Assembly: GCA_963815195.1 (NCBI GenBank)
Contig: CAWFGE010000017.1
Location: 128,001 to 192,000 of the forward strand
Reading direction: 5' to 3'
From: an uncultured Planctomycetaceae bacterium
GTDB lineage: Bacteria; Planctomycetota; Planctomycetia; Planctomycetales; Planctomycetaceae
Length of the DNA stretch: 64,000 nt
In this document: one piece after another, positions 6,073-57,802 of the stretch
Layout of the letters: every line of letters starts with the position of its first letter
How positions within the stretch are numbered: position 1 is the first letter of the stretch
Made by a program: the position numbers and the translations under genes
The notes under the pieces: model-generated
What the model saw: the letters and a program-made list of their open reading frames with translations, nothing else
Databases searched by the model: none
What the model was told of the DNA's origin: nothing

Positions 6073-6297
6073 ATGCTAGTGCTGTCAAGACAGCGGGACG
6101 AGAGCATCATCATCGGGGACGACATCGTAATTACGATTGTCAATATCCGAGGTGATAAAGTTCGCCTGGGGATTCAGGCCCCCAAAGAGATCCCCGTTCA
6201 CCGCCAGGAAGTTTACGACGCGATCAAGAGACAGAGCGCTTCGCCGAACGCGCCGGACTCGGTTGCGGATCCCACGGATTCGGAAAATGCTTCCTGA
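6073..6297 (+). CDS. csrA: Carbon storage regulator CsrA
   Basis: [56 protein letters not shown]. Confidence 0.97.
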
Positions 6298-6859: not shown

Positions 6860-8989
6860 ATGTCTCGAATCAACACAAACATCGCCGCCCTCACGGGCCT
6901 CAGGAACTTGAATAAAGCCAACGACCTGTTGAACACGTCGTTGACGCGGCTCTCGACGGGCCTTCAAATCAACTCCGGCAGAGACAACCCGGCCGGTTTG
7001 ATCGCCAGCGAATCGCTGCGGTTGCAGGTCACCAGCATCGAGCAGTCCATCAAAAACAGCAACCGGGCCAACGACGTGATTTCCACGGCGGACGGGGCAC
7101 TTGGGGAAATCAACGGGCTCTTAAGCCAGGTTCGCGGCCTGGTGCAGGAAGGCCTGAACGACGGGGCGTTATCCCAGTCGGAAATCGAGGCGAACCAGCT
7201 CCAAATCGACGCCGCCCTCTCCGCCATCAACCGGATTTCCTCGAACACCACCTTCGCCGGCGACAAGCTCATCGATGGCAGCAAGGCGTTTACGACCACC
7301 GTCTCCACGGCCGACTCGGCCAAGCTCGACGACTTCCGCATCAACGAAGCCTTGCTCGGCACGAGCGGTCAAATCGATTTGAACACCGAGGTCACCTCCG
7401 CCGCCGAGAAAGCCCAACTGCGATACGCCGGCGGCGACTTGACGGGCGCGTCCACAATTGAAATCTCCGGCTCCAACGGCCAGGAAGTGTTGTTCCTGGG
7501 CGGGTCCAGCACGGTGCAAAACATCCGCGACGCCGTGAACAACGTCTCGGATTCCACCGGCGTGACAGCCCGCGTTTTGGACGGGGCATCGCAGACGATC
7601 GCCGCCACCCAATCCGCCGCGACCTTGGATTCCGCCGCCGCCAATGCCGACGTGACCTTCACGCGGGTCGACGCCGGCACCGATGCGACCTTGGGCGGAA
7701 AAGTCTCTGTGTCCTTTGTCGATCCCGGGGCCGCCAGCCAGAGTCTGGGCGTCAACACCACCGTCAATTCCAACGGCGACGTGGACATTGTGGTCAGCCT
7801 GGCCACGGACGGGGCCTCGGCCATCACCTCCACGGCCGACGACATTCAAAACCTGATCAACAACGACGCCACCGCCAGCCAATACGTCACGGCGGCCGAA
7901 GAAGGCACGGGAGCGGGTGTGGTCGATGCCATCGCCGCGACCGACCTGACCGGTGCCCTGGACGCGGGCACGCTGAACTTCATCGACGCCCGCCCCACCG
8001 GCTCGGCCGGGACCGTGAACGTCGTTCTGGCCGATCCGGGTGCCAACAACTCGCCCTTGGGCGTGTCGGTGTCCACGAGCGGCAACGATTCCACGGTGAC
8101 CGTCAATCTCGCCACCGACGGCACCGGCACGATCACCTCGACCCTCGATGAGATCGCCGCCGCGATTCAGAACGACAGCACCGCCAGCGGGTTGATCGAC
8201 GCCAGCGTGACCGGCGAGGGCAACTCGGTCTCCACCGCCCTCGGCTCCACGGCGCTCGACCAAACGAACGGCTCGGTCCTCGCCTTCGAAAGCGCGAACT
8301 ACGGATCCCGCGAGTTCGTGGGCCTCAACGTCCTCGACGGCACCTTCGACACCACCGGCTCCGACAACACCACCGAATCCCGCCGGGACACCGGAGAGGA
8401 CATCGGCGTCACCGTCAACGGCCAGGCCGCCGAAGGCGACGGGCTGAAAGCCACCGTGCGGAACTCCACGCTCGACGCCTCCTTCAGCTTCGACAAAGAC
8501 AGCAACGCCGTCGGCACCACCGCGACCGTTCAGATCACCGGGGGCGGGGCGCTGTTCCAGATCGGCCAGGAAGTCTCCGCCGCCGGCCAGGTCGGGATCG
8601 GCATCGACGCCGTCAACACCGCCCGTCTCGGCGGCATCACCGGGAAGCTCTACGAACTCGGCACGGGCAACGGCAAAAGCCTGCTGGACGTGAGTGCCGG
8701 AAAAGCCAACGGGGCCGACCTGGTCAGCATCATCGAAGAAGCCCTCGACCGCGTCTCCACGCTCCGGGGCCGATTGGGATCGGTGCAGAAAAACGTGATC
8801 GAGACCAACGTCTCCACGCTGGGCGTGGCCTTGGAAAACATCTCCGCGGCCCGCAGCGAAATCACCGACACCGACTTCGCCTCCGAAACCGCCGCCCTCA
8901 CCAAAGCCCAGATTCTGCAACAATCGGGCATCTCCGTGTTGTCCATCGCCAACCAGGCCCCGCAGCAAGTCTTGAAGCTGCTCGGATAA
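6860..8989 (+). CDS. fliC: Flagellin (709 aa) with a large variable region
   Basis: N-terminus SRINTNIAAL...RLSTGLQINSGRDNPAGL; C-terminus SEITDTDFASETAALTKAQILQQSGISVLSIANQAPQQVLKLLG. Confidence 0.97.
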   Translation: MSRINTNIAALTGLRNLNKANDLLNTSLTRLSTGLQINSGRDNPAGLIASESLRLQVTSIEQSIKNSNRANDVISTADGALGEINGLLSQVRGLVQEGLNDGALSQSEIEANQLQIDAALSAINRISSNTTFAGDKLIDGSKAFTTTVSTADSAKLDDFRINEALLGTSGQIDLNTEVTSAAEKAQLRYAGGDLTGASTIEISGSNGQEVLFLGGSSTVQNIRDAVNNVSDSTGVTARVLDGASQTIAATQSAATLDSAAANADVTFTRVDAGTDATLGGKVSVSFVDPGAASQSLGVNTTVNSNGDVDIVVSLATDGASAITSTADDIQNLINNDATASQYVTAAEEGTGAGVVDAIAATDLTGALDAGTLNFIDARPTGSAGTVNVVLADPGANNSPLGVSVSTSGNDSTVTVNLATDGTGTITSTLDEIAAAIQNDSTASGLIDASVTGEGNSVSTALGSTALDQTNGSVLAFESANYGSREFVGLNVLDGTFDTTGSDNTTESRRDTGEDIGVTVNGQAAEGDGLKATVRNSTLDASFSFDKDSNAVGTTATVQITGGGALFQIGQEVSAAGQVGIGIDAVNTARLGGITGKLYELGTGNGKSLLDVSAGKANGADLVSIIEEALDRVSTLRGRLGSVQKNVIETNVSTLGVALENISAARSEITDTDFASETAALTKAQILQQSGISVLSIANQAPQQVLKLLG

Positions 8990-50493: not shown

Positions 50494-51066
50494 CTAAGCG
50501 AGCTGTTTTTTGCGGCCGACGAGCGTCCGGATCCGTTCGGCGAGCAAGGCTGCGTCGAAAGGTTTGCGGAACGTTTCGTTGAACAACGTGCGGTCGAACC
50601 CGCTGGCGTTGTCGTCGTCGGTCAATAATCCGATCAACACGGTTTCGGTGTATTCCGTGTTTTTCTTCAGGTTTTGGGCAATCATCAGGGCTTCGTTTCG
50701 CCCCATTGCGAAGTCAACGACCACGCAATCCGGATGCAGGCTTTCCGCCTGAATGCCGGCTTCAAACCCGCTGGCAGCCGATTCAATTTTGAAATCGGTT
50801 TCTCCGATCATCTCGCCGAGACTCAAGCGCACCTGGGAGTCGGCACCGACGAGCAAAACTTTGCCCATCACTTCGTCTTCCAACTCGCCAAGCGGCATCC
50901 CATGCTCTTTCAGAAATCGGATCAAATGTTCGCGGGGGATGCGGCGATCCTGGCTACCAGGAATACGGTAACCACGAAGCCGACCCGAATCGAACCATTT
51001 GCTGACAGTGCGGGGTGCAACTTTGCAGATCTTGGCTACTTGTCCAGTAGTGAAGATCGTCCTCAT
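50494..51066 (-). CDS. Excisionase-like HTH (HTH_17) plus atypical receiver-domain regulator
   Basis: MRTIFTTGQVAKICKVAPRTVSKWFDSGRLRGYRIPGSQDRRIP; REC with HPDCVVVD and FRKPF but lacking the N-terminal acidic pair. Confidence 0.9.
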   Translation of the reverse strand: MRTIFTTGQVAKICKVAPRTVSKWFDSGRLRGYRIPGSQDRRIPREHLIRFLKEHGMPLGELEDEVMGKVLLVGADSQVRLSLGEMIGETDFKIESAASGFEAGIQAESLHPDCVVVDFAMGRNEALMIAQNLKKNTEYTETVLIGLLTDDDNASGFDRTLFNETFRKPFDAALLAERIRTLVGRKKQLA

Positions 51067-52333
51067 CGCGGGCTCTCCAATTACATTGTCATTGCCAACA
51101 AAGAGGGTTTGTCGGGCCCTCCGGATCTTCACCCCTGCACGATGGCCGGCTCTTCCTGGCCAAACTGGGTCCGTGACAAACGAGTACCACCGTGGTTTTG
51201 GGTCGGGGCTGACTGTTTGGGAAAACCCTTCGGGCACGATCAAAGCAACCGCCCCAAAGTGGTTTCCACGTAACGATGGCTTCAGAAGTCTTCGAGAAAC
51301 TCCTGAACCCATAAAACGGCAATTACGGGAAATAAAAAGGGAAACCGTTCACGAATGGAGTCTTACAGATGAAGATCCACGGAACGAACGGCTGGAGGGC
51401 GGGACCGGAGGCTTTGCGCAGAGCATCCGGCTCTGTCGGTAGGTAGATCCGAATTGTCCTTCCCCCCTGAAGTCGGTCTCATCGGACAGCCGCGGACTGC
51501 ATCCCTGCAATCGCCATGAAGCATTCAGCGGTCTGTTCCAAATTCAACCGTCTGACCCATTGTATCGAACCATATCTTATGAAATCTTTAGAATGTTTGG
51601 GTTGACACAGGTAGCAATGTTGCTCTCAGCAAATCGATGTTGGGGAAGTTGAGGCCAAAACTGGTTGATCGCATCCTATGCACAAGGAATGCCGAAGCCG
51701 ATTTTCCCAAAAAAACCAGATCAACTCCGCGATAATCGTGAGTCGGAACTGAAGATGCGCTTTGGGTTTACGTCAAGGGATCGGCGTGATCCCGCCCGCA
51801 TCGCCACAAACGGCCCGCTTCTTTGCATTGTAGAATTGGCACCGATTAAAGGAAATCCTTTGTAAAACTCCAAACGCAAGGATTGTCCCGGAAGAATGGT
51901 TTTGCGGGCTGAAGCCGCGGGACAGCGTTCCTTGGCTTTGGCTTATCGAGGTTCTTCTTCAGGGACCAGGCCCGGGGGATTCCCGACGATGGAGAGCCGC
52001 GACCGGGAATGGAAATTCCAGGAAAAGGGGAACAGCTGTCCGAGAATTGATCTTGCTGCCTTGTAATTTTTTCACTAAAACACCCATTGCAATGTCGGCA
52101 AGGCGGTTTTGCAGGACGCGACCCGACCCGACTCTTTCCAGCAGGGACGCTGGGCCACAGAGCATTTGTCGCAGGGTTTTTTCGACGTTGGGACGCGTTC
52201 CCGATTCGAATGGCCTCGTGTTTGGGAGATGGTTTTTCATCCCCCCGGCAAGAGAATTGCATGGTTTTTGTGGTGGATCTTACCTGTTGAGATCCAACGG
52301 AGTGTCCCTGGAAAATTGGAAAGGAAGCCAGTC

Positions 52334-53144
52334 ATGCTGGTCCTCACCCGCCGCGAAAATGAAAAAATCGTGTTTCCCGAAGTCGGGATCACGGTCGAAC
52401 TGGTCTCGATCTCTGGCTCCCGTGCTCGATTGGGGATCCAAGCCCCGGCGGAAGTTCGGATCCTCCGGCACGAGATTGCCGACAAGGAAATGGCGGAGAA
52501 GCCGCTGACCTTCGCCGTCAAAAACCGCCCGCAACTGGCCGCCTTGGCGAAGCAGGCGCAATCGGGCAAGCCCTCGCACGCGGTGCGGAACCATCTCAAC
52601 TCGACCTCGATCGCCGCGCAGCTTCTGCGCGGCAGCTTGACATGGGGATGGTCGATGAAGCCGAGGCCACGGTGCAAACGCTGCTTTCCGAACTCGACGC
52701 GCTCAATACCGAAATCACGAACCCCGCGCCGGCCAAATCCTCAAAATCGGGGAAAGGCGAAGCGGCCCCCGCGCGCGGCCGGTGGCGTTGATCGTCGAAG
52801 ACAACGACAACGAGCGGCATCTGCTGGCCGGGTTTTTGAACATGGTGGGCTTTGAGGTGGTCACGGCGGAGAACGGCGTGGCGGCCCTCGAGTATTTGAC
52901 CTCGCACGAGCGGCCCGACGTGGTCCTGCTCGACATGCTGATGCCCGAATGCGACGGCCCGACCGCCGTCACCAAGATCCGCCGAAAAGCGGAATTGGAG
53001 GGCCTGCGGATTTTCGCGGTCAGCGGCACATCGCCCGCCCAATTGGGCCTGGAAACCGGGCCCAAGGGAATCGACCGCTGGTTCCATAAGCCGATCAACC
53101 CCGAAGAACTGGCCCGCGAAATGGCCAAGGATTTGGTGTCTTAG
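52334..53144 (+). CDS. CsrA-domain + H-box-like helix + receiver fusion (~270 aa), two 1-nt deletions near 52630 and 52777
   Basis: MLVLTRRENEKI...RARLGIQAPAEVRILRHE; SHAVRNHLNSTSIAAQLL; middle frame RQLDMGMVDEAEATVQTLLSELDAL; REC LIVEDND...LLDMLMPECDG...AVSG...FHKP. Confidence 0.75.
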
Positions 53145-53334
53145 TCGGCGTTTCAAGAAAGGAAGCGGGCGAGGAGGCCGCCCGAACTCTTGCCAGTGAT
53201 GCGTCCCTGTTTGCGAGGTGGCTGAAACATGCGGGCTGACACGACTCAAAGAGGACCATCCCGCCCTCGGGGACCGTTTGCCGGCAGGAGGAAAGTCAGA
53301 ACCCAACCAGAGTCCACCAACAGCGAGACGTTTT

Positions 53335-53652
53335 ATGCAAACAGATCTTGGAGAGCCGACATCCTCCAACGTGGCCCGGGCGGAATATGTTTTTGAACTT
53401 TACATTGTGGAGAACGAAGCGAGGCATCGGGAAATTCGAGATTCGGTGACACAGTTGTTCGACGCGCATTTGCGGGACGGCTACAAATTGCGCGTCATCG
53501 ATGTCGCCCGCGAGCCGGAAAAAGCCCATCGGGCGGACGTGCTGGCGACGCCCACCTTGATCAAGCTGCGTCCGAAACCCGCGCAACGGGTTGTGGGGGA
53601 TCTGATCGTGGGCGATTGTTTGCTCGAGGAGTTTGGAATCGCTTCAACTTGA
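53335..53652 (+). CDS. kaiB: KaiB-family protein
   Basis: YVFELYI...YKLRVIDV...PEKA...VLATPTLIKLRPKPAQRVVGDL. Confidence 0.85.
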   Translation: MQTDLGEPTSSNVARAEYVFELYIVENEARHREIRDSVTQLFDAHLRDGYKLRVIDVAREPEKAHRADVLATPTLIKLRPKPAQRVVGDLIVGDCLLEEFGIAST

Positions 53653-53907
53653 AATGTGTTTTCATAATCTGAGCCAGCTCGGGTCTCGACGGACGGAGAG
53701 ACGAACAATCAAGACCGGCGGCTAGCGCCTTGCCGCTCACTTTGGCGGCATGTCCTAGCGCGGACGAAATCAACGAGTGACATGGAAAGCACGATTTCCG
53801 GCAGGATGAGAAACAGCGGGCGAAGTTGAACGTCGCGGGCCGATCCGAAGATCACGGTCGTCATCGTGAGATTCCTTCTAAAACCCTGTTGACGAAGGCC
53901 TGAATGG

Positions 53908-55467
53908 ATGCGGGACATCCCTTTGAATGAATCGGACACCTGGGAATGGCTGAGAGCCGGTTGCGATGACTCCGCGCGGATTGCCGACTTGGAGCGGGCC
54001 CTGGATTTGTGCCACTCCGCCTTCAACGGGATTGTCGAACGCAGCGCCGACGGCGTGGTGGTCATCAACTTGTCCGGGGTGATTTGCTTTGCCAACGCGG
54101 CCGCCGAGGAGCTTTTGGGCCGGCCTGCGAAGCAGTTGATCGGGCAGCATTTCGGGATCCCGCTCACGCCCGGCGATACGGCGGAGATCGAGCTTCTGCG
54201 AAACGGCCGGCCGCACAGCGTGGCGGAAATGCGGATCGTCTCGACGGAGTGGCAAGGCGCCGCCGCGTATCTTGCGACGCTCCGCGACATCACGGAGCGC
54301 AAGCGGGCCGAGGAGCGCTCGCGGGAAGACATCCGCCGCCGGGATATGTTCCTGGCGATGCTGTCGCACGAACTGCGAAACCCGCTCGCGGCGATTTCGA
54401 GTGCGGTGGCGATTTTGGAGCGGACCGACGTCAACCCGCACATCGCCGAGCAGGCCCGGCAAATCATCGACCGCCAATGCAGCCAGATGACCCGCCTGCT
54501 CGAGGACCTGCTCGATGTCACGCGGATTTCCCAAGGCAAAATCGAGCTGCACCGCGAACCGCTCGATCTGGAGATCGTCGTCGAAGAAGCGGTCAAAGCC
54601 GTCGGCGCATTGTTTCATGCGCGGGAGCAGTCCCTGAATGTGGACTACCAGCCGCGGACGTTGTTCGTCGAAGGCGACAGCGTGCGGCTGCACCAGGTTC
54701 TGGTGAATCTGTTGTCGAACGCGGCAAAGTATTCCGATCCCGGCACGACCGTTTGGCTCAGCGTCGCCAGACAAGACCGCGAAGCGGTGATCCGCGTCCG
54801 CGACGAGGGCATGGGGATTCCGCCGGAAACACTGGAAACCATTTTCGAGCCCTTCACCCAGTTGGAAGCCACCCGTTCGCGATCGAAAGGCGGCATGGGC
54901 ATCGGCCTCGCGCTGGTGCGAAGCCTCGTGGAATTGCACGGAGGAAGCATTATGGCGACTAGCAAAGGCTCCGGACAGGGGAGCAAGTTCGAAATCCACC
55001 TGCCCCGGATTTCGTCGCGAACGAAAACCCAGGCACCGCCCAAGGCCCTGCCCTTGGCGGATACGCTGCGGATCCTCGTCGTCGAGGATCATCCCGACGT
55101 GCGGACGATGCTCAAGATGCTCCTCGAAATGCAAGGCTTCGATGTCGAGACGGCCGGCGACGGGGAACGCGGCGTCGAATTGATCGACTTCCAAAAACCC
55201 AACGTCGCTTTCGTGGACATCGGACTGCCCGGCATCGACGGCTACGAAGTCGCCCGCCAGGTGCGGTCCCGGCCGGAAAACCAGTCGGTGTATCTCGTCG
55301 CGCTCACCGGCTACGGGCAGCCGCAGGATTTGGAACTCGCCAAAGAAGCCGGCTTCGATTTCCACCTCGCCAAACCGGTGGACTTGAACGAGCTCACGCA
55401 GTTTCTGGGCGAACGCTCCAAACAACTCGCCGCCGAAACCGTCGCGGAATCGACAAAGCCCTGCTAA
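53908..55467 (+). CDS. PAS hybrid histidine kinase (PAS-HisKA-HATPase-REC)
   Basis: FANAAAEELLG...LRDITERK; LSHELRNPL; NLLSNAAKY; DEGMGI; GMGIGL; FVDIGLPGIDG. Confidence 0.95.
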   Translation: MRDIPLNESDTWEWLRAGCDDSARIADLERALDLCHSAFNGIVERSADGVVVINLSGVICFANAAAEELLGRPAKQLIGQHFGIPLTPGDTAEIELLRNGRPHSVAEMRIVSTEWQGAAAYLATLRDITERKRAEERSREDIRRRDMFLAMLSHELRNPLAAISSAVAILERTDVNPHIAEQARQIIDRQCSQMTRLLEDLLDVTRISQGKIELHREPLDLEIVVEEAVKAVGALFHAREQSLNVDYQPRTLFVEGDSVRLHQVLVNLLSNAAKYSDPGTTVWLSVARQDREAVIRVRDEGMGIPPETLETIFEPFTQLEATRSRSKGGMGIGLALVRSLVELHGGSIMATSKGSGQGSKFEIHLPRISSRTKTQAPPKALPLADTLRILVVEDHPDVRTMLKMLLEMQGFDVETAGDGERGVELIDFQKPNVAFVDIGLPGIDGYEVARQVRSRPENQSVYLVALTGYGQPQDLELAKEAGFDFHLAKPVDLNELTQFLGERSKQLAAETVAESTKPC

Positions 55468-55478
55468 AAAGAACGCGG

Positions 55479-57640
55479 CTATCTACGTCGGCGGGGGCGC
55501 GAGGGGCGTTTTTGCGGGCGGGCGGTGACCAGACGGAAGTCCAATTCCCGCCGGTCCACATCGACGTGAGCCACGACCACGCGGACGCGGTCGCCCAGGC
55601 GGTATTGCTTGCCAGTACGCCGGCCAATCAGGCTGAACGTCGTGCGGTCGTGATCGAAATACTCATCGGGATCGAGAGCCGTAATGTGGATCAAACCCTC
55701 CACCGGAATCTCCACGCCTTGGCAGAAAATCCCGAACCGCTCGACGCCCGTGATCACCGCGTCGAGTTCATCGCCGATCCGCTCCGCCATGTAGGTCAGC
55801 AGTTTGACCTTGGTCAATTCGCGCTCGGCGGCGGCGGCCCGGCGTTCCGTCAGCGAGCAATGGTTTCCCAGTTTCGCCAATTCGCTGCGGTCCGGCGCGC
55901 GCGGCTTGCCTTTCGCCGTCAGCACTTCATTGAACAGCCGGTGCACCGACAAGTCGGGATACCGCCGGATCGGGCTGGTGAAATGGCAATAGTTCTCGAC
56001 GGCGAGCGCATAATGCCCGAGTTCCGCTTCGGAATACTCCGCCTGTTTCATACTGCGGAGCAGCGCATAATTGATGGCATGCTCGGCCGGCTTGCCTTTG
56101 GCTTTATGAATCACCTCTTGAAGAGCCGGCCGGCTTTGGAATTGCTCCAGCGGAAACCCGAGCGCCTTGGCGAAGTCGGCGAAGGCTTTGAGCTTGAGGT
56201 AATCGGGGTCACCGTGGACTCGCCGCAAAAACGGGAGGCCCCGATCGGTGAGTTCCACCGCGACCGCGATATTGGCCGCCAGCATGAACTCCTCGATGAT
56301 TTGATGGCTCTCATCGTGCACGCTCTCGTGCGCGCCGGTGACCTCGCCGTCCTGGTTGAAGTCGATTTCGATCTCCGGCAGGTTGAGTTCCAGCGCCCCG
56401 CCGCGAACCGGCGATTGCGGAGCATCATCGCGAGCGTGTGCATGTTTTCCAGAAGCTGCCGGACTTTCGCGCTGACCCGCCCGCGAAACTGCTCCGGCTC
56501 ATTAATGATCGGCAGGACCTCTTCATAAGCGAACCGGCGGTTGACCTGGATCGCCGAGTTCGCGAACTCGGTATGGACGGGGACGCCCTCGGCCGTGAAC
56601 TCGACCAACACCGATTTCGTGTACCGCAGCTTGCCCTGCTGCAGACTCGCGAGGCCGTTCGAGATGACCTCCGGCAGCATGGGGATGACCCGCCGCGGGA
56701 GATACACGCTCGTGCCGCGAACCCGGGCCTCGGCATCGAGCAAGCTGCCCTCCTGGACAAAATGCGAAACGTCCGCAATGTGCACACCCAAATGCCAATG
56801 CCCGTCGCGGGTGCGTTTGAGGGAAATCGCATCGTCGAAGTCGCGGGCGTCTTTGGGGTCGATGGTGACGATGATTTCTTTCGTCAAATCGAGCCGGCCG
56901 CCTAAGACCGATTCATCGAAGCGGTCGGCTTCGCGGTGGGCTTCGTCCAAGGCGTCCTGGGAGAACTCCACCGGCAAGCCGAACTCGTGGATGATGGTCT
57001 CCGTATCGACGCCCGGTTCCCCGCGGGGGCCGAGGACTTTCGTGAGCACCGCTTCGCCGGGCCTTAAATGCGAGGGGAAGCGGAGCATTTCGATGACGAC
57101 TTTGTCGTCCGGGATCGCACCTTTGGCACCGGGGTCGCCGACGTACACGGGATCGGTGAAGGTGCTCCCGTCCACGCGGACAAAGCCTTCGTCGCCTTCC
57201 TCAAAATAGGTGCCGACGAAGGTATTGGTCGCCCGTTCCAAAATGCTGACAATCTGCCCGCAGCGGCGGTTTCCGGATCGTCTTCGGCGGGACAATCGCA
57301 CCAGAACTTCGTCGCCGGTGTGGGCGTCGCGGACATCTTCGGGGCTGACGAAAATGTCGCCTCCGCGAAAGCCCGGCACCGTTCCGTGGGGCACCACGAA
57401 TCCGCCGCCGCTGGAAATGCGTTTGAAGATCCCCGCGATCTCGCCGGCCGCTTCCCGCAGGCGGAGCCGGCCGTGCTGGTTCTCCGTGACCCGCCCGTCC
57501 GTGATGAGCCGGTCAATCGCCTCGCGAAACTTGGGCAGGTCCCGCTTTTTGATTTTCAAGTGCTTCGCGAGGGACCCCGCTTTCAAAGGCCGATATTCGG
57601 GATCGGAAAGATGCTCGAGGATTTGATCTTGGTAAGGCAT
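55479..57640 (-). CDS. rnr: Ribonuclease R, frameshift near 56398
   Basis: TIDPKDARDFDDA, HIADVS, RGTSVY; second frame IIEEFMLAAN, HFTSPIRRYPDL and an S1 domain; one base missing in a G-run. Confidence 0.92.
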
Positions 57641-57802
57641 CAATGGCATCGAGGATGGAATTGGGTCAAAATGGCGAGCCGGAGGTGTAAGCCTCGGGGT
57701 CACGTGGAATTCTCTGAAACCGGCGTTATCTCTAAACCCGGCGGTATTTCAAGCGCTCGCAACAAACCAGCCGGCTTACGCCGGCCGCCCGCCAGGGCCC
57801 GT

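Follow-up and report, generated by a model that had tools for sequence, protein, structure and literature searches.

A CsrA–histidine hairpin–receiver protein encoded with an orphan KaiB and a PAS hybrid kinase: a predicted RNA-output response regulator of Planctomycetia

Could an RNA-binding protein of the CsrA family be switched by a histidine–aspartate phosphorelay, and what part might an orphan KaiB play in such a system? Both questions are raised by three co-oriented genes at positions 52334–55467 of a 64,000-nucleotide stretch of DNA (the window) from an uncultured Planctomycetaceae bacterium (assembly GCA_963815195.1, contig CAWFGE010000017.1, positions 128,001–192,000, forward strand), which encode a CsrA fusion, a KaiB-like protein and a PAS hybrid kinase. 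CsrA is known to be controlled via sponge RNAs (small RNAs of the CsrB/C type) or via FliW-type proteins. An earlier note, made from the letters of the window alone, had singled out these genes and named their CsrA, receiver, KaiB and PAS–kinase–receiver domains, and all of the Pfam domains score over their cut-offs. We conclude that the fusion is a real and conserved protein, predicted to be a response regulator whose output acts on RNA; it has a histidine hairpin specific to its family and is here coupled to a putative clock-derived input. The coding features, all on the forward strand, are as follows.

52334–53144, +, CsrA–His hairpin–receiver gene, 270 amino acids; one base missing after 52629 and one after 52775
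52334–52486, +, CsrA domain (PF02599, E 4.6e-16, 59 bits against a cut-off of 27); Arg6 and Arg45 invariant
52577–52722, +, His-bearing helical hairpin resembling a dimerization and histidine phosphotransfer (DHp) domain (H-x-x-R-N-x-L), His codon at 52577; without an ATPase domain
52785–53141 (Pfam Response_reg 52782–53141), +, receiver (PF00072, E 6.1e-20, 71.9 bits); phospho-Asp codon at 52932, Lys codon at 53088
53335–53652 (Pfam KaiB 53335–53649), +, orphan KaiB-like gene (PF07689, E 9.2e-19, 67.4 bits against 27)
53908–55467 (Pfam domains 53908–55464), +, hybrid kinase PAS–HisKA–HATPase_c–REC; no membrane domain annotated
53962–54342, +, kai-cluster-type PAS domain of the kinase, assigned from alignment and a complex model; predicted KaiB interface formed by an invariant Phe-Gly and the following strand

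Is the first gene intact? In the window assembly it is spread over three frames, and it could be taken for a pseudogene with two frameshifts; alternatively, reading through the breaks could have produced the fusion as an artefact. Short-read contigs of run X1, possibly the window's own sample, carry one extra C after 52629 and another after 52775 and differ in no other letter, thereby restoring the two single-nucleotide deletions that had been presumed from the sequence; the support amounts to one contig per site, at depths of 4.1 and 2.9, and runs X2 (a small share), X3 and X4 gave no cover at either site. In the congeners G001, G002 and G003, the fusion is a single open reading frame (ORF) of 271, 271 and 269 amino acids, respectively, followed by kaiB and the same kinase, and the gap at the first site is directly visible in the DNA alignment with the congeners. 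Both breaks are assembly errors, as the X1 contigs and the single ORFs of the congeners concur, and the protein has 270 residues. Given also the hundreds of full-length homologues, the pseudogene explanation is largely refuted and we consider it extremely improbable, notwithstanding the two frameshifts in the assembly and the single correcting contig at each. The adjacent RNase R gene (window 55479–57703, complementary strand) is split by one frameshift near 56400, which is probably another assembly error and indicates that the assembly is prone to them.

The residues expected to matter in the two flanking domains are strongly conserved. Arg6 and Arg45 of the CsrA domain are present in all 64 representatives (sharing <70% identity) and at all 57 loci, with Arg or Lys at position 7 in 49 of the latter. 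Arg45 aligns with Arg44 of Escherichia coli CsrA (alignment to 1y00), and Arg6, Arg7 and Arg44 are the RNA-contact residues of CsrA, in β1 and β5. The receiver has its full catalytic set, as had been claimed: the acidic pair, Asp, Thr/Ser and Lys are all present, the Asp being retained in 64/64 representatives and 56/57 loci, and the Lys in 63/64 and 55/57. At L019, the one locus whose receiver is degraded, the His motif is degraded as well. Between these domains, the hairpin His and the Asn four residues after it (H+4) are each found in 63/64 representatives, and the His at 54 of the 57 loci, in keeping with the conservation across homologues that had been anticipated. Within the genus, the ratio of nonsynonymous to synonymous substitution rates (dN/dS) is 0.02–0.17 for the fusion, 0.05–0.07 for the hairpin and 0.02–0.06 for the CsrA domain.

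An AlphaFold2 model of the full-length fusion comprises the CsrA strands, helices at residues 82–103 and 107–129, and the receiver, joined by low-confidence linkers, and the hairpin modelled alone reaches a predicted local distance difference test score (pLDDT) of 94. Fold searches with the full-length model match receiver domains only, the receiver fold matching RR468. Searches with the hairpin retrieved generic helical hairpins only, with no match at E ≤ 0.001, and a profile search of the PDB found nothing significant for it. HisKA matches below the cut-off were obtained for 14 of 52 members (best E 1.8e-5) and SPOB_a matches for four of the 52 (best E 4e-4), and no HisKA or HATPase match was found with Pfam in 13 full-length fusions. 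Comparison with the H-box of the neighbouring kinase gave an hhalign probability of 63.6. The H-box-like segment of the earlier note needs one correction: there is no kinase domain, and the hairpin lies below all Pfam cut-offs. Without an ATPase domain, it cannot be an autokinase. It shares with Spo0B/ChpT and HisKA DHp domains the two-helix hairpin, in which helix 1 bears the His close to its beginning and in the HisKA register; it differs from them in scoring below the cut-off, in lacking an ATPase or pseudo-ATPase domain and the H+5 Pro, and in having a family-specific profile.

How widespread is the protein? When 8000 candidates were scored against an alignment of 15 homologues, 646 proteins reached E ≤ 1e-30; PF02599 and PF00072 are both present in all 120 among the matches listed, and their names in the source mention only CsrA or response regulator. 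The ESM Atlas held five fusion clusters among 30 matches, the three displayed being mostly from Planctomycetota. The 57 loci comprise 15 of 20 fetched and 42 of a further 80, and were found by CsrA or receiver patterns rather than by the hairpin; five of the 20 were dropped (L024, which has no hairpin, and L027 and L030–L032, which have no receiver), as were 38 of the 80, which were receiver-only matches. L071, which belongs to the 42, is assigned to Alcaligenaceae, a possible binning error. A profile of the hairpin, built from 52 of the 57 loci (L014, L015, L019, L059 and L067 being excluded), was run on 401 Planctomycetia genomes and matched 89 of them; it also matched 380 cluster representatives at E ≤ 0.001. 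Among the best 150 of these 380, 88 have both CsrA and a receiver, 36 CsrA only, nine a receiver only and 17 neither; many are fragment-like and none is a full-length kinase. A phylum-wide search with the full alignment gave 8/301 genomes, which is not an estimate of prevalence, since only eight candidates were scored per genome. Cultured planctomycetes with the fusion are Stieleria marina (L041) and Lacipirellula limnantheis (L074). The CsrA–hairpin–receiver proteins are a family of Planctomycetia, the class in which kinship with named records would also place the organism of the window. In a tree of the fusion proteins, the types of partner kinase are clustered; the backbone is unresolved, and no order of events can be read from it for this reason.

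Several variants of the architecture were seen. Two CsrA–hairpin–receiver genes flank two CheB/CheR kinases at L162:3879–14275, and two are in tandem at L159:4085–6204. At L024:754–1332 (complementary strand), a CsrA–receiver fusion without the hairpin lies beside a hybrid kinase. Proteins of 66–105 amino acids (P0204, P0193, P0189, P0149 and others) consist of the His hairpin alone, and are either free phosphotransfer-like units or fragments.

What would phosphorylate the fusion? In the hybrid kinase of the window, the H, N, G1, F and G2 boxes and the receiver Asp and Lys are intact (His154 at 54367 and Asp437 at 55216), and its dN/dS in the genus is 0.09–0.12. The synteny with a kinase that the earlier note would have looked for is borne out: of the 34 loci with full flanks, 27 have a kinase core no more than 5 kb away, as do 41 of all 57, as opposed to 4.9% for random positions in the window's own genome (G000), kin among the loci not being independent in these counts. 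Partner types in the DNA examined are a CheB/CheR hybrid (19 loci), a kai-type PAS kinase (10) and others (12), with none at 16; the fusion is thus the constant part of the system, and the input varies. The partner kinases shown mostly carry a receiver of their own and, in known relays, such a kinase calls for a His intermediate.

From these features, we propose that a KaiB-tuned kinase feeds a His-Asp-His-Asp relay ending on the CsrA fusion, and thereby switches RNA binding; this is a tentative scheme, possible rather than probable as a whole. The three genes would likely constitute one cytoplasmic signalling unit, in which the neighbouring hybrid kinase is very probably the cognate donor. 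Phosphate would pass from the kinase His to the kinase receiver, then to the hairpin His and finally to the receiver of the fusion. We slightly favour the idea that two hairpins, brought together by the CsrA dimer, form a four-helix bundle like that of Spo0B/ChpT, in which the His carries phosphate. It is likely that the CsrA domain binds RNA, at GGA sites in mRNA leaders, and phosphorylation of the receiver would, on balance, be expected to alter that binding.

The hairpin could instead be a built-in phosphatase, or a docking or dimerisation scaffold, with the kinase phosphorylating the receiver of the fusion directly and CsrA still being phospho-switched. In HisKA domains, Thr or Asn at H+4 is needed for phosphatase activity and an acidic residue at H+1 for kinase activity (PMC3510030; this and the other papers given by PMC number are cited from excerpts). 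The hairpin has Asn at H+4 at 46 of the 57 loci, an acidic H+1 at just 21, and no Pro at H+5; it is the retention of the former and the frequent loss of the second that make a phosphatase or docking role a rival to the relay. Moreover, at three loci (L056, L062 and L070) the His is lost while the receiver Asp and Lys are kept. Across the same loci, however, the His is better conserved than the Asn (54 versus 46), SPOB_a matches occur among the members, and the receivers of the partner kinases speak for an intermediate His. We judge the phosphatase or scaffold role to be doubtful, and retain the relay as the working scheme. The observations just given on H+4, H+1 and the loss of the His count against that scheme, as do the scores of the hairpin, below every Pfam cut-off, and the 16 loci with no kinase within the DNA examined. 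In the CsrA domain itself, Leu occupies the position of E. coli His43, and the score falls under the NCBIfam equivalog cut-off (TIGR00202, 44.5 versus 70.1 bits).

Is the CsrA domain the output? It might alternatively titrate stand-alone CsrA paralogues by heterodimerising with them, or be an RNA-sensing input to the relay. There are 10 CsrA matches in the genome, including a stand-alone csrA at 6073, FliW was not found in the genome, and the fused domain is divergent, all of which would suit such a role. On the other hand, the two arginines are invariant at every locus, the dN/dS of the domain is low, tandem GGA motifs are enriched in the leader of the fusion itself (see below), and no linkage of the fusion to a stand-alone csrA was seen in the genus. 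We regard this alternative as quite unlikely, and take the CsrA domain as the predicted output. The earlier note had further suggested a heterodimer with the csrA at 6073 and a link to flagellin expression. This suggestion found no support and was set aside: that gene is one of the 10 matches, lies 46 kb from the fusion, and its orthologue in G001 is on a different contig. The stand-alone csrA (6073–6297) is located upstream of a flagellin-like gene (6860–8989), named from its sequence.

Two features of the leader bear on expression and on possible RNA targets.

52246–52261, +, sigma-54-type −24/−12 promoter-like element, of putative function, kept in 4/4 genomes of the genus although the surrounding leader has diverged
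52318–52325, +, Shine–Dalgarno (SD) sequence with a tandem second GGA, a candidate autoregulatory CsrA site

A tandem GGA occurs in 33 of the 55 fusion leaders that have an SD-GGA, compared with 121/1426 control starts from the genome and 5/67 controls from the same loci, the positions of the control starts being uncertain; it is present in 5 of 13 leaders of stand-alone csrA genes. The enrichment is partly accounted for by the long anti-SD, and the two-base gap between the GGAs is shorter than the span one CsrA dimer would be expected to bridge. The tandem GGA is compatible with autoregulation by CsrA of its own leader. A sponge RNA between the fusion and kaiB was considered and rejected, as the GGA counts in the four congeners are 6, 9, 1 and 0 and are not conserved; no Rfam match was found at 51200–54100. 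The element at 52246 resembles the sigma-54 consensus. Its motif was found at 3 of 63 related loci, all of them in the genus, where 0.11 would be expected from shuffles, and rpoN is present in the genome. Additionally, CsrA genes are enriched in predicted sigma-54 regulons of Planctomycetia (PMC12316311). A scan for sigma-70 promoters and terminators remained near the level of shuffles (1 versus 1.3, and 9 versus 5.5, standard deviation 2.6, respectively).

What, then, does KaiB contribute? Where most KaiB proteins have Ser, this one has His (codon at 53425); its residues at the G88 and D90 positions are Glu and Gly, respectively, and it falls under the NCBIfam cut-offs for clock KaiB (50.7 versus 110, and 48.4 versus 145.3). 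Its gene accompanies the fusion at 8 of 57 loci, every time with a kai-type PAS kinase, and at none of the 19 CheB/CheR loci; of the other 88 genomes in the class sample that have the hairpin, six carry kaiB no more than ~5 kb away. KaiB co-occurs with one type of PAS domain and is not part of the core system.

A complex between KaiB and the PAS domain was modelled with a score (ipSAE, interaction prediction score from aligned errors) of 0.79 (0.78–0.79 over three runs), the best of three controls scoring 0.00, with at least 98% of contacts shared between runs and a partner pLDDT of at least 88. Among 157 solved complexes, 116 attain the mark applied to ipSAE, as do 2 of 215 mismatched pairs; these figures are only roughly applicable here. 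At the modelled interface, the Ala-Thr-Pro and Gly-Asp loops of KaiB pack against the invariant Phe-Gly motif of the PAS domain and the next strand. The model was made with custom alignments of 22 rows, 12 of which are not orphan pairs, and no KaiB–PAS co-structure was found by name among the PDB matches. It supports binding of KaiB to the PAS domain, short of showing it. The nearest precedent would be KidA, whose PAS domains bind fold-switched KaiB in Synechococcus elongatus, and PAS genes occur beside kaiBC outside cyanobacteria (PMC9478674). Binding of PAS to KaiB, shown for KidA, is predicted for the window pair; the latter differs in that its PAS domain is in a hybrid His kinase, that KaiC and KaiA were not found, and that KaiB lacks G88 and D90. 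In SasA, too, the His kinase core is preceded by a KaiB-like unit, and the window KaiB weakly matches the N-terminus of SasA (E 6e-4); here, KaiB has a gene to itself and is nearer to KaiB proper (E 1e-11), and the kinase has its own PAS domain and receiver. KidA is a closer precedent than SasA for KaiB acting on a PAS domain. We consider that KaiB probably binds and tunes the PAS domain, and that it likely does so in a fixed thioredoxin-like fold: G88A/D90R locks KaiB in this fold-switched state (PMC9478674 and PMC11665890), and both sites are replaced here.

Orphan KaiB sequences share further features. The Ser site is His in eight of ten and Tyr in two, as against Ser, Ala or Gly in the remaining 12 rows; nine of the ten orphans have lost G88, and all of them D90. 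Four KaiC-linked rows also have both replacements, and that at L158 has the D90 change alone, so that these changes are not unique to orphans. In the genus, dN/dS of the orphan KaiB is 0.12–0.26, with synonymous rates (dS) near or above 1; all three genes of the unit are under selection. Judged by these rates, the orphan KaiB is not simply decaying and is under purifying selection within the genus.

Might kaiB nevertheless be the relic of a lost kai cluster, or have a role unrelated to the kinase, the CsrA–kinase pair working without it? It is absent from 49 of the 57 loci, the kai-type PAS kinases of L020 and L034 have no kaiB nearby, and the orphan proteins evolve faster than their neighbours and lie on long branches. 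Furthermore, kai clusters do decay: at L158, what separates kaiB from the kinase is a mere fragment of kaiC. Against a relic stand the dN/dS values far under 1, the persistence of an open frame next to this kinase in genomes of families f1 and f8 as well as in a Thermoguttaceae record, the common His/Tyr and G88/D90 changes, and the complex model, which passes the mark. A relic is, in our view, unlikely. The proposal of the earlier note that KaiB gates the kinase draws support from the purifying selection, the single PAS type and the model; KaiB proves to be accessory, and KidA rather than SasA the guide. To the scarcity and rapid evolution of kaiB must be added, on the debit side of a KaiB-tuned kinase, that the signal in the complex model may be ancestral to kai cassettes, since 12 of the 22 rows are not orphan pairs; that the predictor may have learnt the KaiB surface from solved structures of KaiB bound to other proteins; that conservation of the PAS interface (0.69) is close to that of the rest of the domain (0.68); and that the ten orphan KaiBs lie on one side of a branch labelled 93/79, which is not starred, in a tree of 63 rows (two skipped, L157 mis-cut).

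Is kaiC truly missing? The earlier note had recorded no kaiC in the 64 kb, and the genome as a whole agrees: searches with the KaiC of L060, which scores over the NCBIfam KaiC cut-offs, found no two-domain KaiC in G000 (94.6% complete), nor in G001, G003, G029, G356, G494, G660, G362 or G408. No two-domain KaiC was thus found in nine of the ten genomes with an orphan KaiB, whose completeness is 85–100% where given. The independence of KaiB from KaiC is called into question by G002, which has an unlinked KaiC-like gene (31% identical), and by the only KaiC-like gene of G000, an unlinked single-domain RecA/KaiC-like ATPase of 295 amino acids (L012:1498–2385), 21% identical to KaiC. Weak KaiC matches of similar extent to this single-domain ATPase were seen in several relatives.

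Relatives preserve the full cluster, of which the window has the reduced form. The order fusion–X–kaiB–kaiC–PAS kinase is found at L049, L060 and L145–L147, rearranged at L148 and without X at L071; the reduced order fusion–kaiB–PAS kinase at the window, L013–L015, L017, L033, L143 and L144; and kaiB–PAS kinase without the fusion at L153 and L156. The locus L158:4357–5253 (complementary strand), with kaiB, the kaiC fragment and a PAS kinase, is a possible intermediate of kaiC loss. X (e.g. L060:9056–9562) is a conserved domain upstream of kaiB–kaiC, alone or behind PAS or receiver domains, which reads as helical and carries a receiver in L148; from the gene order and this receiver, it may be the C-terminal domain of KaiA3, for which no significant Pfam or PDB match was obtained (RsbU_N in 1 of 12 at E 0.03). 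Neither X nor kaiC has a tblastn match in G000. The X–kaiB–kaiC order of the relatives, at the same locus, is that of the KaiA3–KaiB3–KaiC3 system (PMC11372060); the window differs in having neither X nor kaiC, the equation of X with KaiA3 is conjectural, and a CsrA output goes unmentioned in the excerpts of that paper. We suppose that a CsrA–hairpin–receiver output, paired with several kinase types, joined a cassette of X (KaiA3-like), kaiB, kaiC and PAS kinase, and that X and kaiC were later lost, KaiB being retained as the partner of the kinase. More speculatively, and with real doubt, Planctomycetes may wire Kai modules to translation: a KaiA3-like/KaiB/KaiC timer would signal via KaiB to the PAS kinase and thence to CsrA by an intramolecular relay, and in the lineage of the window, which lost KaiC, KaiB would have become a fold-locked, His-bearing subunit of the kinase.

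How does the fusion compare with systems already described? It has the fold and the R6/R7/R44 positions of CsrA/RsmA (PF02599; 1y00, 2bti and 2jpp), but is joined to the His hairpin and receiver in a protein of 270 residues, FliW was not found, and its control by phosphorylation is a proposal. With ANTAR response regulators (AmiR, PdtaR and Enterococcus RR17; PMC12471899), it shares a receiver and an RNA-binding output; it differs in that the output is CsrA, with an extra His hairpin, and that control of translation would be expected rather than antitermination. If correct, the scheme would make a covalent His-Asp switch a third mode of CsrA control, and the fusion would join the ANTAR proteins as the second type of response regulator that binds RNA, while the locus would combine a KaiC-independent function of KaiB with a direct phosphorylation switch on CsrA. 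The sequence also names a candidate partner (a single type of PAS domain, whose interface is predicted) and a candidate output (CsrA) for non-cyanobacterial KaiB and kai-cluster signalling, and the three proteins are small and soluble-looking, and hence suited to in vitro work.

The response-regulator surveys of Galperin reportedly list CsrA among output domains, and the architecture may be catalogued in print. Our literature search, which did not take in the Galperin output-domain reviews, found no description of the fusion, of the hairpin or of a KaiB–PAS kinase pair without KaiC. CsrA has no occurrence in the P2CS papers PMC2716373 and PMC4384028, and neither 'response regulator' nor 'IVFP' occurs in the excerpted supplementary text of PMC13443453, whose other data files may list fusions.

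Two further features of the locus may be mentioned. A short inverted-repeat-like element lies at 53715–53742, between kaiB and the kinase; there are 16 copies of its 22-nucleotide core in the genome, and many X1 contigs stack up on it. On the other side of the fusion, a gene encoding an HTH_17 domain and a degenerate receiver (window 50494–51231, complementary strand) is divergent from it across a 1-kb gap.

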